Virus record (IMG/VR): IMGVR_UViG_2737471819_000015
Source: a virus
Lineage: Duplodnaviria > Heunggongvirae > Uroviricota > Caudoviricetes
Direction: 5' to 3' (one strand)
Length of the DNA: 4,073 bases
The position numbers were made by a program, and so were the translations under genes. A model generated the notes under the pieces. That model was not told where the DNA came from. It saw nothing but the letters and a program-made list of their open reading frames with translations, and made no database searches. Shown one piece after another: positions 1-4,073 of this stretch. How positions within the stretch are numbered: the first letter of the stretch is position 1; each line of letters begins with the position of its first letter.

Positions 1-278
1 TCATTCACCGCCTTCTGCAGTACTTCCGGATCGTAGTCACGACCGTCACGCGGAACAGGGATATGGCTTACCGCCTCCTTCACCATCTGCTCAAGCATCG
101 GACGCACATCATCGCCCGTCACGCACTTCTGTAATACCACAGACAGGGAAGCCAGTTTTTCTTCAAACGTTTGTGCCTGCGCGGCTATTTTCCCCTCAAA
201 TGTGCGCTGTAAATCCGCCAGCACTGCGGAAAATTCTTCACCCAGCGCACGGATAATGGACAGTTCACGTTCATTCAT
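1..278 (-). CDS. Hypothetical phage protein, N-terminal fragment (first 92 codons; continues beyond the window start)
   Basis: ATG at 276..278 overlaps the portal stop (ATGA arrangement). Translation MNERELSIIRALGEEFSAVLADLQRTFEGKIAAQAQTFEEKLASLSVVLQKCVTGDDVRPMLEQMVKEAVSHIPVPRDGRDYDPEVLQKAVN... The frame stays open to the window edge. GGGGGA lies 10 nt upstream of the ATG. Identity not recognised; by position it could be a minor head / head-morphogenesis or adaptor protein. Confidence 0.55.
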   Translation of the reverse strand, partial: MNERELSIIRALGEEFSAVLADLQRTFEGKIAAQAQTFEEKLASLSVVLQKCVTGDDVRPMLEQMVKEAVSHIPVPRDGRDYDPEVLQKAVN

Positions 279-1639
279 TTTTTCAGAATCCCCCTGAACA
301 TCGCCTTCACCGCATCATGCTCTGTTTCGCTTATGGCCTTATTACCGTCAGACGCGCCCTCCTGGCGTGTGCCTGACGACGTTTTCCCGGAAGACGCGAA
401 CGGATCCTCACGGGCATCACGACGGGACAGCGCCTCCAGACTGTAGTTCTGCTGCTGAAGATACAGTGCATCACCGCCGGCAAGGGGCGGCAGGTTCTCA
501 CGTTTACGGGCCTCATTGGGCGTGAGAAGCGTATTTTTCACCGATTCACCCAGCGTTTTCATGCGACGTTCGCTGTCCATTCTCAGCAGCGTGGTGACGT
601 CAAACTCCGTGCTCTCGTTTTCCCCTGTTTCCAGCGCCTCATCCAGTAACAGCTCAATGGACTCAATCAGCGTCTGCAGACACTGGGAATAATACTGCTG
701 CTCCAGCGCCTCCACGTTGTCACTGGAAGGCGGCTGGCCAACGCCAATCTTGTAGGCCGGGACACGGAACACCGAACAGACAATTTCAGCCGTCATCTTC
801 AGTTGTTCCACCGTCTGCGCATCCACCGGTGAAAACGTCGTGGGGTTATATTTCGCCCCGTTGCTCAGGATCGCCGTTTTCCCCGCATTTTCGCCGGTAT
901 ACCCGCTGTCCCAGTTGCTCTTCAGTTTTTTCGCATTTTCTTCCGTTATACTGCCGGGGATCTCAATCACCCCGGACGGCCTGCCGCCATTTCTGAAAAA
1001 AGACGTTGAATTTGCCTGAATATGATGCCCCTGCGTGGCCGCCAGCCCGGCAGCATACACCGGCGGCAGCCCCACAAGCGGATGAAAAAAACAGTTAAAC
1101 CGGTCGTGGATCACTTCCCTGGCAGGCACCGTCACCGCCTCCGTGATCCCGCAGTTCCGGTCCGGCGTGATGCGGTAGAACACCTCGCCGTCATCCGCCA
1201 CCAGAGGTTCAACCCGGCTCCAGTCCAGAATACGCAGTTCTTTGATCTGCCCCCGGGAGTTACGGATTTTCAGCACCACCGTATTGCCGTGACGCAGTTT
1301 GGCGTTCAGCCACAGTTCAAAAAACTGGATGCGGTTCTGCTGTGCATTGGGACGACGACAGAGGCGGGCAATATCCCCCCGGCGCGTTTCCCTGCGTATC
1401 CCCTGCGCATCCGTCTGCATAAGACGCAGCCGCATTTTGGCGATATCCTGGGATATCAGCGAAATACATGCAAACACCGCATGAAAGGAGAGGACGGCTT
1501 CAGGATCGGCTTTCACGCCCTGCTGCCAGGCGCCGGCAAAGGGCTCAGCCACCGCCTGAAACAGGCTGGTCCAGCCCGCCTCTCTTACGTCACGTCCTGA
1601 TTTCTGGTTTTTTCGGGTTCGCCGTAAAAGGTTCCACAT
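275..1639 (-). CDS. Phage portal protein, HK97 family (454 aa)
   Basis: The full-length frame carries the motif series I associate with HK97-type portal proteins: AVFACISLISQDIAKMRLRL, RPNAQQNRIQFFELWLNAKLRHGNTVV, FFRNGGRPSGVIEIPG, NWDSGYTGENAGKTAILSNGAKY, DAQTVEQLKMTAEIVCSVFRVPAYKIGV, TLLTPNEARKRENLPPL. Start ATG at 1639 with GGAG 8 nt upstream; stop TGA at 275..277. Confidence 0.85.
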   Translation of the reverse strand: MWNLLRRTRKNQKSGRDVREAGWTSLFQAVAEPFAGAWQQGVKADPEAVLSFHAVFACISLISQDIAKMRLRLMQTDAQGIRRETRRGDIARLCRRPNAQQNRIQFFELWLNAKLRHGNTVVLKIRNSRGQIKELRILDWSRVEPLVADDGEVFYRITPDRNCGITEAVTVPAREVIHDRFNCFFHPLVGLPPVYAAGLAATQGHHIQANSTSFFRNGGRPSGVIEIPGSITEENAKKLKSNWDSGYTGENAGKTAILSNGAKYNPTTFSPVDAQTVEQLKMTAEIVCSVFRVPAYKIGVGQPPSSDNVEALEQQYYSQCLQTLIESIELLLDEALETGENESTEFDVTTLLRMDSERRMKTLGESVKNTLLTPNEARKRENLPPLAGGDALYLQQQNYSLEALSRRDAREDPFASSGKTSSGTRQEGASDGNKAISETEHDAVKAMFRGILKK

Positions 1640-1806
1640 TCGCCATGCTCCGCATCACGTTTCTTTTTCTGACCTGCCGGACGTCGCACCGTGATGTACT
1701 CCGCCTTTCCCAGGCGAACCAGCACCTCCGCACACGGCTGTGCCACATCACGGATATCCCCGGCCCGGGCATCATGCGTGCCCTGCAGATATCGGATCTT
1801 TGCCAT
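1585..1806 (-). CDS. Hypothetical small protein (73 aa), uncertain gene; overlaps the portal start by 55 nt in another frame
   Basis: ATG at 1804..1806; translation MAKIRYLQGTHDARAGDIRDVAQPCAEVLVRLGKAEYITVRRPAGQKKKRDAEHGECGTFYGEPEKTRNQDVT. Codon choice looks gene-like (CTG, CAG, ATC, GAT, GCG), unlike the Arg/Trp/Cys-rich third frame. A consensus SD (AAGGAGG, 1837..1843) lies upstream but is separated from the ATG by the 22-nt hairpin plus 8 nt. No homology is recognised. Confidence 0.3.
   Translation of the reverse strand: MAKIRYLQGTHDARAGDIRDVAQPCAEVLVRLGKAEYITVRRPAGQKKKRDAEHGECGTFYGEPEKTRNQDVT
1640..1651 (-). promoter_or_regulatory. Ribosome-binding site of the portal gene (GGAG, 8-nt spacer, ATG)
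   Basis: Minus strand reads GGAGcatggcgaATG; GGAG at 1648..1651, ATG at 1637..1639. Confidence 0.5.
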
Positions 1807-1814
1807 AACCTGTT

Positions 1815-1836
1815 ACGGGAGGCACACGCCTCCCGT
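1815..1836 (-). other. Perfect 9-bp GC-rich inverted repeat (stem-loop) immediately downstream of the capsid stop codon
   Basis: Plus 1815..1823 acgggaggc and 1828..1836 gcctcccgt are exact reverse complements separated by a 4-nt loop (acac). On the mRNA strand it reads ACGGGAGGC-GUGU-GCCUCCCGU. No U-tract follows on either strand, so it is not a classical intrinsic terminator. Confidence 0.6.
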
Positions 1837-1850
1837 CCTCCTTATCAGAC

Positions 1851-3212
1851 TCAGCCGCCGGACGCACTGCCATAGTTCACTCCGGTGATCACCGCCACCG
1901 CCGCGGTACGGCGACGACGCCAGTTGATCCAGCGCTCCGCACGGATGGCCACGCTGCCTGTCTGGAACATGGAAACCAGCTCCACCGGCGACGGCGTGGT
2001 ACTGTCGCCGGTCGGCTCAGACTGCATTTCCAGTGATGCCTCGCGGGACATATCCACTGCCACGCCGCCGTCATCCGCCAGATAAATATCCGGGGCATTC
2101 ACCAGCACCAGCTGGTCACCCACGTACTGGGAGACAATCACCGGCAGCCCCTGGAAGGAGCCACCCAGCAGGGTCATGTCCGGGTATTCTTTCTGACCCA
2201 GCGCATTTTTACGCATGGACAGCGCCAGAGCATTGGTGCTGGACATCAGCCAGACCGCACCGGTGGGCTGCAGGTTTGCTGCAACAAACTGTCCAAACGC
2301 CGCCTCTGCATCCGCATCCGGGTTACCGCTTGAGGCCGTGCCCTTCACATCATGGGTGATGGACGCCGGGGAGACATCTGCCACCGCCGCTTTTTTCGGG
2401 TCCACAAAGTCTGTATCCAGACGCGCCACCACCGCTTCCGCCAGCGCATTACGGACCAGTGCATCAGCAGCCGGACTGGAAAAACGGATCAATTCTTCCG
2501 TCAGTACCGCAATGGCCGACACCTTCGCATGACTGAAGGTGATGGATTCAAAATCAAACTTCGTCAGGGGTTTTGCCTTACCCTCACCCACCCAGCCGGC
2601 AGCACCGCCCGACACCTGGGCGTGCACACGGATATTGAACGGCACCTGACGAAGTGCAGGGATCCCGCCCTGACCAAATCGCCCGATAATGGTCTGAGGA
2701 CGCAGGTAATCAATAAAGTCCTGTGCGTATTCCTGATATTCAGACAGGCTGCCTGCCCACTGCGGATCCGTGGTGGTCCCCGCGCCCACTGCCGATTTCA
2801 GGACATGATGCAGACGACTGTCATCCGGATACTGACGACGGGCCACTTCCAGGGCTTCAGAGCGGACACCTTTAGCCGCAGCCAGCGATTTGGCAAAACG
2901 TGCGAAACCAATCCCCTTATCCAGTTTCTGCTCCACACGGATCACAGGCGCAGAAGCCACCGCGGCCACATTCCCGTTACCGGCCTGTTTCACCGGCTGC
3001 GCCGTGGCGGCCTTACCGGCTTCCAGTTCACGCAGGCGCTTCAGGTGCGCATCCACCTGACGTATTTCCGCTGCGGTGTTGTCGTAATGCTCTTCCTCCT
3101 CCACATCCAGCGTGCGCCCTTCCTCTGCGGCTTTGGTCATGACCTCCTCAAGGGAGGCTGCCAGTGCTGCACGCTTGTTTTCAAAACTTTTAATCTGTTC
3201 GCCAATATTCAT
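1851..3212 (-). other. Major capsid protein unit with N-terminal delta/scaffold-like segment (residues 193-645 of the fusion ORF), beginning at internal Met193
   Basis: The in-frame ATG at 3210..3212 opens a segment (MNIGEQIKSFENKRAAL...) that resembles the N-terminus of stand-alone HK97-type capsid proteins with a delta domain. It is preceded by AAGGA (3223..3227) with a 10-nt spacer. Confidence 0.5.
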
Positions 3213-3788
3213 TATGGTCTTTTCCTTATGAAAAACGGTTGTTGACTGTGCCGCAGCGCCGGCAGAAGATGCGATTTTCACCACCGGTTTCCGGTTGCCG
3301 GACGCGGCAGAAAACTGGCGGTCGTAAGATTTAATGGTCCGGATGGTGCATTCCGCATTCGCGGGCACGGTGACGGCAGACACCTCCATCAGCTCCCAGC
3401 GCAGAAAATGCAGTCCGCCTCCGTCCAGAAAGGTGTATTCATGAGGACGGAAGCCCACGGACAGCCCCCTGACCAGCCCGGTCTTAATGGCCGCCCAGGC
3501 CTCATCCAGCCTGGCAGCCAGTTGCGATGGCATATCCGGCACGGGCTTCGCCAGTGTTGCCGTGATTTCCAGCCCTTCGCTGACCCGGCGCACCGTACAC
3601 TGCCCCACCGGGCGGGAATGGTCATGCTGCCAGAGAAACGGGATCGCACTGCCAAACTCCGCGCCCTCCGGCTCCAGGATGTCACCATCCCGATCCGGAG
3701 AAGGCGTTGACGCAATCCCGGTGATCACCCGCTCATCCTCACTGAAGGATTTCACCGTCAGCAGGGAGCAGGCCCGTTTAAGAGTCAC
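1851..3788 (-). CDS. Fused prohead serine protease / delta(scaffold)-like coiled coil / HK97-fold major capsid protein (645 aa)
   Basis: Single uninterrupted frame. Residues ~20-155 carry prohead-protease (HK97 gp4-type) hallmarks: IPFLWQHDHSRPVG (His-containing motif), RGLSVGF (candidate nucleophile Ser110) and LMEVSAVTVPANAECTI. Residues ~193-300 are charged and coiled-coil-like (MNIGEQIKSFENKRAALAASLEEVMTKAAEEGRTLDVEEEEHYD...LKRLRELEAG). Residues ~300-645 look like an HK97-family capsid protein (WVGEGKAKPLTKFDFESITFSHAKVSAIAVLTEELIRFS...; C-terminal SVAIRAERWINWRRRRTAAVAVITGV). Strong SD plus GTG start; TGA stop at 1851..1853 followed in frame by further TGA and TAA stops. Confidence 0.85.
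   Translation of the reverse strand: MTLKRACSLLTVKSFSEDERVITGIASTPSPDRDGDILEPEGAEFGSAIPFLWQHDHSRPVGQCTVRRVSEGLEITATLAKPVPDMPSQLAARLDEAWAAIKTGLVRGLSVGFRPHEYTFLDGGGLHFLRWELMEVSAVTVPANAECTIRTIKSYDRQFSAASGNRKPVVKIASSAGAAAQSTTVFHKEKTIMNIGEQIKSFENKRAALAASLEEVMTKAAEEGRTLDVEEEEHYDNTAAEIRQVDAHLKRLRELEAGKAATAQPVKQAGNGNVAAVASAPVIRVEQKLDKGIGFARFAKSLAAAKGVRSEALEVARRQYPDDSRLHHVLKSAVGAGTTTDPQWAGSLSEYQEYAQDFIDYLRPQTIIGRFGQGGIPALRQVPFNIRVHAQVSGGAAGWVGEGKAKPLTKFDFESITFSHAKVSAIAVLTEELIRFSSPAADALVRNALAEAVVARLDTDFVDPKKAAVADVSPASITHDVKGTASSGNPDADAEAAFGQFVAANLQPTGAVWLMSSTNALALSMRKNALGQKEYPDMTLLGGSFQGLPVIVSQYVGDQLVLVNAPDIYLADDGGVAVDMSREASLEMQSEPTGDSTTPSPVELVSMFQTGSVAIRAERWINWRRRRTAAVAVITGVNYGSASGG
3324..3731 (-). 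other. Prohead protease domain within the fusion ORF (approx. residues 20-155)
   Basis: Candidate catalytic His in W53-Q54-H55-D56-H57 (codons at 3618..3632) and candidate catalytic Ser110 in GLSVGF (codon 3459..3461); codons were checked directly against the sequence. Domain limits are approximate. Confidence 0.7.
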
Positions 3789-3799
3789 ATCAGCCTCCT
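3789..3799 (-). promoter_or_regulatory. Ribosome-binding site of the capsid/protease gene (AGGAGG, 5-nt spacer, GTG start)
   Basis: Minus strand reads cAGGAGGctgatGTG: a consensus Shine-Dalgarno at 3794..3799, 5-nt spacer, GTG at 3786..3788. The ATG at 3788..3790 is out of frame and is followed at once by TGA, so GTG is the only usable start for the 645-aa frame. Confidence 0.6.
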
Positions 3800-3800
3800 G

Positions 3801-3825
3801 AAAATAAAAAAACCGCCGCAGCGGT
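3801..3825 (-). terminator. Terminator-like element on the coding strand between terL and the capsid gene: 5-bp GC-rich stem with tetraloop followed by a U-tract
   Basis: Minus-strand RNA would read ACCGC-UGCG-GCGGU (plus 3812..3825; the arms are exact reverse complements) followed directly by UUUUUUAUUUU (plus 3801..3811). The stem is short, so strength is uncertain; the tract could equally be an A/U-rich translational enhancer in front of the capsid ribosome-binding site. Confidence 0.35.
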
Positions 3826-3851
3826 CCATGATGGTTACAGGGTGAACAGGG

Positions 3852-4073
3852 TTATATGAAAAAAACCGCATATTCTTTCTTTTTCGGCTCCGGATTCAGG
3901 GACATCAGGGATACCGCATTGAAGAGCGCCATCAGCGGGTCAATTTTCCCCCGTCCGCTGGCCTGTTTGGTAATAAGGATGGCGTTACCTTTCGGCTCCA
4001 CCCGGGCATTGCCAACGCACCAGGCCATCAGTGGCTGACCACCATGCACCAGCACTCCCTCAGCCAGTTTGCG
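3852..4073 (-). CDS. terL: Phage terminase large subunit, C-terminal fragment (5' end lies beyond the window edge)
   Basis: The minus-strand frame is open from the window edge (codon phase fits exactly at 4073) to a TAA stop at 3852..3854. Translation is RKLAEGVLVHGGQPLMAWCVGNARVEPKGNAILITKQASGRGKIDPLMALFNAVSLMSLNPEPKKKEYAVFFI. The pattern ...W..GN.....GN....K.....KID...AL..A.. is what I recall for the C-terminal end of HK97/lambda-type large terminases (memory of the family, not a search). The 'M' in the ORF track at 4055 is a GTG and is not the true start. Confidence 0.65.
   Translation of the reverse strand, partial: RKLAEGVLVHGGQPLMAWCVGNARVEPKGNAILITKQASGRGKIDPLMALFNAVSLMSLNPEPKKKEYAVFFI

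Follow-up and report, generated by a model that had tools for sequence, protein, structure and literature searches.

We examined a stretch of 4,073 nt from a virus of the Caudoviricetes (IMG/VR record IMGVR_UViG_2737471819_000015), hereafter called the window, in which all plausible genes lie on the minus strand and together form part of a phage head-morphogenesis module. A preliminary description of the window had reported that the gene for the large terminase subunit (TerL) is followed by a fused protease-capsid gene and only then by the portal gene, and both the order and the fusion proved to be real and to recur in thousands of database copies. This order differs from the canonical one of HK97, lambda and gene transfer agents (GTAs), which runs TerL, portal, protease, (scaffold), capsid, in that the portal gene comes after the capsid gene. 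In the order of transcription, the window contains the following features.

3852..4073, minus strand: 3' end of the TerL gene (last 73 codons and the stop codon), running off the window; assigned by identity to phage BP-4795.
3800..3827, minus strand: terminator-like hairpin GGACCGC-TGCG-GCGGTTT with a T-run after it, located past the TerL stop codon and ahead of the ribosome-binding site of the capsid gene; from a terminator scan and folding.
3786..3799, minus strand: Shine-Dalgarno sequence AGGAGG (3799-3794) and GTG start codon (3788-3786) of the protease-capsid gene; read from the sequence.
1851..3788, minus strand: protease-delta-capsid fusion gene, 645 amino acids (aa); from Pfam, NCBIfam and PHROGs.
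3210..3227, minus strand: candidate internal start within the fusion gene, with a Shine-Dalgarno-like AAGGA (3227-3223) and an in-frame ATG at codon 193 (3212-3210); from conservation.
1815..1836, minus strand: 9-bp GC-rich hairpin ACGGGAGGC-GTGT-GCCTCCCGT, 14 nt past the stop codon of the capsid gene; from folding.
1585..1806, minus strand: small open reading frame (ORF) of 73 aa, equal to ORF57 of BP-4795, between the capsid and portal genes; from the ORF call and phrog_829.
275..1639, minus strand: complete HK97-family portal gene, 454 aa; from PF04860 and TIGR01537.
275..294, minus strand: junction of the portal gene and the next gene, with a G5 run (294-290), an A6 run, and the portal TGA (277-275) overlapping the next ATG (278-276) as ATGA.
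3..278, minus strand: first 92 codons of the gene after the portal gene, equal to ORF59 of BP-4795 (461 aa, repeat-rich), running off the window.

To the preliminary description we add that the strand is minus, that a conserved small ORF separates the capsid and portal genes, and that another head gene begins within the window. As that description had also held, each individual gene is an ordinary phage gene, and the ORFs of the window matched ORF55 to ORF59 in the BP-4795 feature table one for one. The TerL fragment gave a weak, below-threshold match to PF20441 (E = 7.9e-5), and we identified it not from this match but from its 98% nucleotide identity to BP-4795 ORF55, a 553-aa TerL with PF03354 and PF20441. 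The portal protein matched PF04860 (E = 5.7e-81) and the HK97 portal model TIGR01537 (E = 3e-105, 352 bits against a cut-off of 112), and its matches in the PDB were 9lbn (5e-30), 8cez/8fql (1e-20), which we take to be the HK97 portal, and the GTA portal 6tba (2e-12). In the fusion protein, Peptidase_S78 (PF04586) matched residues 48-153 (34 bits, cut-off 21) and Phage_capsid (PF05065) residues 386-635 (52.5 bits, cut-off 24.2); the HK97 major capsid model TIGR01554 (E = 1e-21, 77 bits, cut-off 27.5) and phrog_617 (E = 2e-261) matched as well, and TIGR01543 reached 46.6 bits, under its cut-off of 59. The closest PDB match to the capsid domain had E = 0.002, indicating that this domain is only distant kin of solved capsid proteins. 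Scans of the window against Rfam at the gathering threshold, and for repeats and promoters, found none. We dismissed the ORFs on the plus strand, such as 2352-3245 and 1022-1600, as antisense artefacts of GC-rich coding sequence; neither the BP-4795 record nor that of Escherichia coli 2014C-3061 annotates genes there.

The best matches to the whole window were the Shiga toxin 1 (Stx1) phages Stx1_121427 and BP-4795, which covered 100% of it at 98.3-98.5% identity (98.3% for BP-4795). The 92 phage records that matched the window were nearly all Stx1- or Stx2-converting phages or related lambdoid phages, and included BP-4795, JLK-2012, YYZ-2008, 2851 and Lys8385Vzw, with identities of 96-97% for YYZ-2008, JLK-2012 and 2851. 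Among E. coli records, 1,249 matched at least 80% of the window length (1,244 of 5,426 complete genomes), with a median of 4 copies per genome and a top identity of 98.5%. Few phage gene blocks have been sequenced as often as the window-type module, of which genomes of enterohaemorrhagic E. coli (EHEC) contain several copies each.

Both BP-4795 and the Stx1 prophage of E. coli 2014C-3061 have the same head order within a complete lambdoid genome. An early-to-lysis run (cI/cro/cII/O/P, nin genes, Q, stx1AB and lysis genes) leads to the genes for an HNH endonuclease, the small terminase subunit (TerS) and TerL; the head run continues with protease-capsid, ORF57, portal, ORF59, Ad1 adaptor, head closure and gp10-like genes; and the tail run consists of tail terminator, major tail, chaperones, tape measure, L/K/I/J homologues and Lom. 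The head genes of YYZ-2008 have the same order as those of the window, and the window-type module is also carried by Lys8385Vzw, an induced, long-tailed phage (PMC7946995). We observed the same genes, order and intergenic signals, at 96-98.5% nucleotide identity, in BP-4795 (Marienburgvirus), YYZ-2008 (Pankowvirus), 2851, Lys8385Vzw and non-Stx EHEC lambdoid prophages, and modules of the BP-4795 type differed from the window in single-nucleotide polymorphisms only, apart from the G5 or G6 allele at the junction of the portal gene and ORF59. We are highly confident that the window comes from an E. coli prophage, a lambdoid siphovirus of the BP-4795/O157 'Sp' type, and represents the head-morphogenesis segment of its late operon. 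The layout of this lineage is fixed: HNH, TerS, TerL, a single gene for S78 protease, delta scaffold and HK97-fold capsid, a small ORF, portal, an ORF59-like gene, Ad1, head closure, a gp10-like gene, tail terminator and tail genes.

These genomes bear directly on the suggestion, made in the preliminary description, that the block might come from a compact capsid-encoding satellite, such as an island of the capsid-forming phage-inducible chromosomal island (cf-PICI) type that makes its own heads and steals tails. cf-PICIs carry a compact HK97-type block of terminase, portal, protease, capsid and connector genes, without tail genes but with integrase, alpA and primase or replication genes. The sole pointers to such an element were the unusual order and the compactness of the fused gene, in a window whose flanks are out of view. 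Unlike cf-PICIs, all the near-identical relatives that we inspected were full phages with tails, namely lambdoid phages or prophages of 50-58 kb in which the genes for Ad1, head closure, gp10, tail terminator, major tail, tape measure, J and Lom come directly after the head block. BP-4795 and the 2014C-3061 prophage possess, besides cI/cro/O/P/Q, stx1 and the lysis genes, a complete lambda-like tail module from Ad1 to J and Lom, and in both the head block occupies the place usual for it in the late operon. The head block also runs on into tail genes in other genera, where the tail proteins are homologous, and in the phages PAJU2, FSL SP-016, vB_FUBS1 and Mcat7, and no integrase, alpA or primase gene adjoined the module in any locus examined. 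The closest relatives therefore lacked the hallmarks of a satellite (absence of tails; integrase, alpA or primase near the head genes; an island of about 10-20 kb), and we consider a satellite origin extremely unlikely.

We scanned one genome per species and obtained 27 loci, with 32-77% identity in the fusion protein, that included representatives of Proteus, Mesorhizobium, Reyranella, Halopseudomonas, Acidovorax, Candidimonas, Snodgrassella and a Burkholderiaceae metagenome-assembled genome (MAG). Synteny was assessed by tblastn of the BP-4795 proteins against these loci. Among the 25 loci whose downstream sequence was long enough, which belonged to Alpha-, Beta- and Gammaproteobacteria, 24 had the portal gene immediately after the capsid gene. 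TerL lay directly upstream in all loci with available sequence, although in two of them (L025 and L026) it gave no tblastn match and was confirmed by Pfam. The order shared by the loci with sufficient sequence was HNH-TerS-TerL-protease/capsid-ORF57-portal-ORF59-like-Ad1. The same order was present in isolated phages, both those with a fused protease-capsid gene (PAJU2 and FSL SP-016) and those with separate protease and capsid genes (vB_FUBS1 and Mcat7); the record of the Pseudomonas phage PAJU2 names gp03 a 'prohead protease fused capsid protein'. A polycistronic transcript of the siphovirus EVP-1 likewise comprises TerS, TerL, a 1,935-nt capsid gene, a 168-nt ORF, portal and a gp6-like connector (PMC8156552).

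On this comparison of sequences, the order TerL, protease-capsid, portal is a conserved trait of a large and old head-module lineage, whether the protease and capsid are fused or unfused. A recent local rearrangement in the source genome, or an assembly artefact, would account for the difference from the HK97/lambda order, and nothing beyond that difference spoke for it. The order was identical in the 1,249 E. coli and 92 phage records at 90-99% identity, and it was kept, with conserved intergenic signals, in alpha-, beta- and gammaproteobacterial relatives down to 32-48% protein identity, leaving this explanation with a negligible probability. Of the earlier proposal of a 'rearranged or distinct lineage', the distinct lineage was borne out by the 24 of 25 loci, the three proteobacterial classes and the isolated phages, and the local rearrangement was not. 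Nor could the arrangement be upheld as unusual, as its database relatives are ordinary, well-characterised temperate phages with the same gene order; the module is a widespread, already known and catalogued phage layout. The records of VT1-Sakai, BP-4795 and PAJU2 that show it date from about 2000-2009. A literature search turned up no paper that deals directly with this gene order or with how the fused protein is processed. The rule 'TerL, portal, protease, capsid' is thus not universal among HK97-type modules, and prophage or satellite callers that rely on gene order should not score the window-type layout as aberrant.

An HNH endonuclease gene was located directly upstream of TerS in most loci of the lineage (L001 17345-17710, with equivalents in L004-L030). 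The same holds for HK97-type cos packaging systems, in which the terminase needs an HNH partner.

We aligned the junction of the portal gene with the next gene (window 275-294; L002 5435-8020; L001 22435-25181). The window shares a G5 run and a two-ORF arrangement with BP-4795 and E. coli 2014C-3061, whereas YYZ-2008 has a G6 run and a single ORF of 861 aa. Most E. coli copies share the G6, fused form with YYZ-2008, and exact matches to the junction in E. coli records numbered 747 for the fused type and 56 for the window type. PGAP labels the 2014C-3061 gene equivalent to the portal gene of the window a 'frameshifted' portal, and RefSeq names BP-4795 ORF59 a second 'portal protein'. The label, the G5 run set against the G6 run of the 861-aa YYZ-2008 portal, and the greater frequency of the fused allele in E. 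coli could be taken to mean that the module is decaying, with the portal gene a frameshifted pseudogene and the block a dead remnant.

However, the two-ORF form extends beyond E. coli. The portal C-terminus, of the form ..RG[LIF]L[TK]K-stop (in frame as ..RGLLTK-stop), and the ATGA stop/start overlap were kept in at least 14 Enterobacterales species, and portal and ORF59-like genes were present as two ORFs in 20 of the 21 species loci in which both were detected, as well as in PAJU2 and FSL SP-016. Moreover, the two-ORF form is that of BP-4795 and of the induced phage Lys8385Vzw, and the 454-aa product spans the entire HK97 portal model. Decay of the module is therefore very unlikely. Because the two-ORF junction is conserved across genera, we regard this form as ancestral and intact and the 861-aa portal as a derived, in-frame fusion, and PGAP has probably mislabelled the two-gene form. 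A programmed -1 frameshift at the junction (CTG AAA AAA TGA) was also considered, and was judged less likely than translational coupling: the gene after the portal gene occupies the -1 frame in most lineages but the +1 frame in four, it is the ATGA overlap, rather than a slippery heptamer, that is conserved, and no stable downstream structure was predicted.

Of the 24 species loci with a portal gene, 21 had an ORF59-like homologue after it, as apparently did PAJU2 and FSL SP-016, and phrog_2271 (859 positions) spans portal and ORF59 together. As both junction forms are found in sequenced Stx phages, the ORF59 product is suggested to work at the portal C-terminus. It would then be a protein that associates with the portal and can be joined directly to the portal C-terminus, as happened in most E. 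coli copies, and such a role would fit the picture of nested genes described below. The ORF59 sequence gave nothing above threshold in Pfam, NCBIfam or the PDB. It contains a tandem repeat of 162 nt (54 aa), with 4.6 copies at 95% identity in BP-4795 (L001 23961-24712) and one fewer in YYZ-2008; positions 1-113 of the window hold the start of the repeat. A protein search with the 92-aa N-terminus gave dozens of hits, all of them partial proteins and mostly on contigs of 200-800 nt, and the repeat probably breaks short-read assemblies.

The small ORF57, which overlaps the start of the portal gene by 55 nt in the window, matched phrog_829 (E = 4e-39), a family of no known function, and had no match in Pfam, NCBIfam or the PDB. 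It was detected by tblastn at the capsid-portal position in 21 of the 27 species loci; in PAJU2, vB_FUBS1, FSL SP-016 and Mcat7 the same slot holds annotated small ORFs whose homology to ORF57 is unverified. Its position just upstream of the portal gene recalls that of lambda gpW, to which no similarity was found, and by this analogy a gpW-like role is suggested.

The capsid gene is flanked by hairpins on both sides. The hairpin between TerL and the capsid gene was the sole terminator-like site found in the window, and Enterobacterales, Proteus, Halopseudomonas, Candidimonas and PAJU2 have an equivalent GC-rich hairpin with a T-run at this site. The relatives also have the same AGGAGG before the capsid gene, followed by ATG where the window has GTG. 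This terminator-like hairpin lies inside what is expected to be a single late operon, and an attenuator or a stabiliser of RNA ends are candidate roles for it. On the other side, 23 of 29 loci (among L004-L034) had, within 50 nt after the capsid stop codon, a hairpin with a perfect GC-rich stem of 7 bp or more, compared with 1.1% of background windows; the stems were unrelated between lineages, and several of the loops were UUCG. This pattern of conservation suggests that both hairpins probably tune the abundance or stability of capsid mRNA within the late transcript, and hairpins in these positions would adjust the mRNA level of the capsid cistron relative to those of the terminase and portal genes.

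The fusion protein consists of an S78 protease domain (residues 1 to about 165), a variable linker (166-192), a helical, delta-like region (193 to about 262) and an HK97-type capsid domain that extends to residue 645. It has more than 2,400 homologues, and nearly all of the 120 listed were 640-650 aa long with both domains (from Salmonella, Enterobacter, Klebsiella, Serratia, Kosakonia, Pantoea and others). In an alignment of nine sequences (A1), H55 and S110 of the protease were invariant, and these are presumably the catalytic residues conserved in the family. An AlphaFold2 model built from the same alignment had a mean pLDDT of 40.6 and a pTM of 0.25, and only the helices at residues 195-261 reached a pLDDT of 70-79; these residues were modelled as two long helices, as expected of a delta-type scaffolding domain.

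The boundary between the linker and the delta-like region coincides with a potential start of translation. M193 was invariant in alignment A1, and no part of the protein varied more than the 25-residue linker preceding it. Each of the 23 fused genes tested had ATG (GTG in one) at the codon-193 position, with AAGGA or GGAGG (the latter in Reyranella and Halopseudomonas) 6-13 nt upstream. In the unfused relatives (Acidovorax, Snodgrassella, vB_FUBS1 and Mcat7), the capsid gene begins exactly at the residue that corresponds to codon 193. Pairing with the anti-Shine-Dalgarno sequence at the internal start ranked in the top 0-20% of positions within each gene, and the RNA around the internal ATG was unstructured (z = +0.38). 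We give about even chances to the hypothesis that the protease-delta-capsid gene is a nested gene, in which the internal start would give rise to most capsid subunits and the full-length product would be a minor, protease-carrying subunit. It is also possible that the conserved start at codon 193 could be, in part, a relic of an ancestral two-gene state. A literature search found no published protein or RNA data on internal initiation, self-processing or the hairpins, and no experimental tests of the nested gene or of the roles suggested for the hairpins and ORF59.

If the gene is nested, the module would build an HK97-like prohead whose protease enters the shell covalently attached to a minority of the capsid subunits. 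Most subunits would probably be made from codon 193, as a delta-capsid protein without the protease, and the protease would then remove itself, the linker and the delta domain. Such a design would replace the non-covalent targeting used by HK97 gp4 and would spare a T=7 prohead from having to take up about 415 protease domains. Starting translation internally at codon 193 thus offers a testable answer to the problem of protease-to-capsid stoichiometry that the fusion poses.

Several points weigh against this account of the window and its capsid gene. The window is only 4 kb long and the flanks of its own source lie outside it, and many of the O157 prophages that carry the window-type module are defective. 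One locus, L021 from a Reyranella MAG, has other genes after the capsid gene and no portal gene in the remaining 2.1 kb. The internal Shine-Dalgarno sequence is moderate in most Enterobacterales (AAGGA, about -5.6 kcal/mol, top 4-20% of positions), and we infer internal initiation, self-processing and a role for the hairpins from conservation of sequence. In L021 (9042-10844), a 137-aa ORF, a hexapeptide-repeat transferase gene and a 222-aa ORF take the place of the portal gene, and the contig then stops; this may represent an inserted moron or a broken module.

Among the closest known systems are PAJU2 (Detrevirus) and the Salmonella phage FSL SP-016, which likewise have TerS, TerL, a fused protease-capsid gene, one or more small ORFs, portal, an ORF59-like gene, adaptor and head closure. 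Their fusion proteins are 48% (PAJU2) and 77% (FSL SP-016) identical to that of the window; their hosts differ, and PAJU2 has two small ORFs before the portal gene. The head module of HK97 (TerS, TerL, portal gp3, protease gp4, capsid gp5) has the same families in common with the window, namely a TIGR01537 portal, an S78 protease and an HK97-family capsid protein with an N-terminal, helical, delta-like region, and it also resembles the window lineage in having an HNH endonuclease beside the terminase genes and gp6/gp10-type connectors downstream. Unlike in HK97, the portal gene of the window follows the capsid gene rather than preceding the protease gene, the protease and capsid are encoded in one ORF, and the lineage has an extra small ORF before the portal gene and an extra repeat-rich gene after it.

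A single gene for protease, scaffold and capsid has been discussed explicitly for the Pseudomonas MD8-like lambdoid phages, in which a ClpP template served to model the protease domain and the capsid domain was reported to be closest to that of phage Mu (PMC8508860). Because the fusion was described in that group, and because an NCBIfam model (NF045541) is named for a fusion of the protease-capsid type, the fusion as such is already known. The MD8 group resembles the window lineage in that both are temperate lambdoid siphoviruses with one gene for the three functions. However, its protein family is different from, and unrelated to, the S78 and HK97-type proteins of the window, and the fusion is therefore convergent.

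In-frame nested genes, in which a long product carries a protease and a shorter, more abundant product arises from an internal start, are found in lambda (C/Nu3), Mu (I/Z) and herpesviruses (UL26/UL26.5). The capsid gene of the window resembles these in its conserved, in-frame internal ribosome-binding site and ATG at codon 193, and differs from them in that the predicted short product would be the capsid protein with its delta domain, rather than a separate scaffold.

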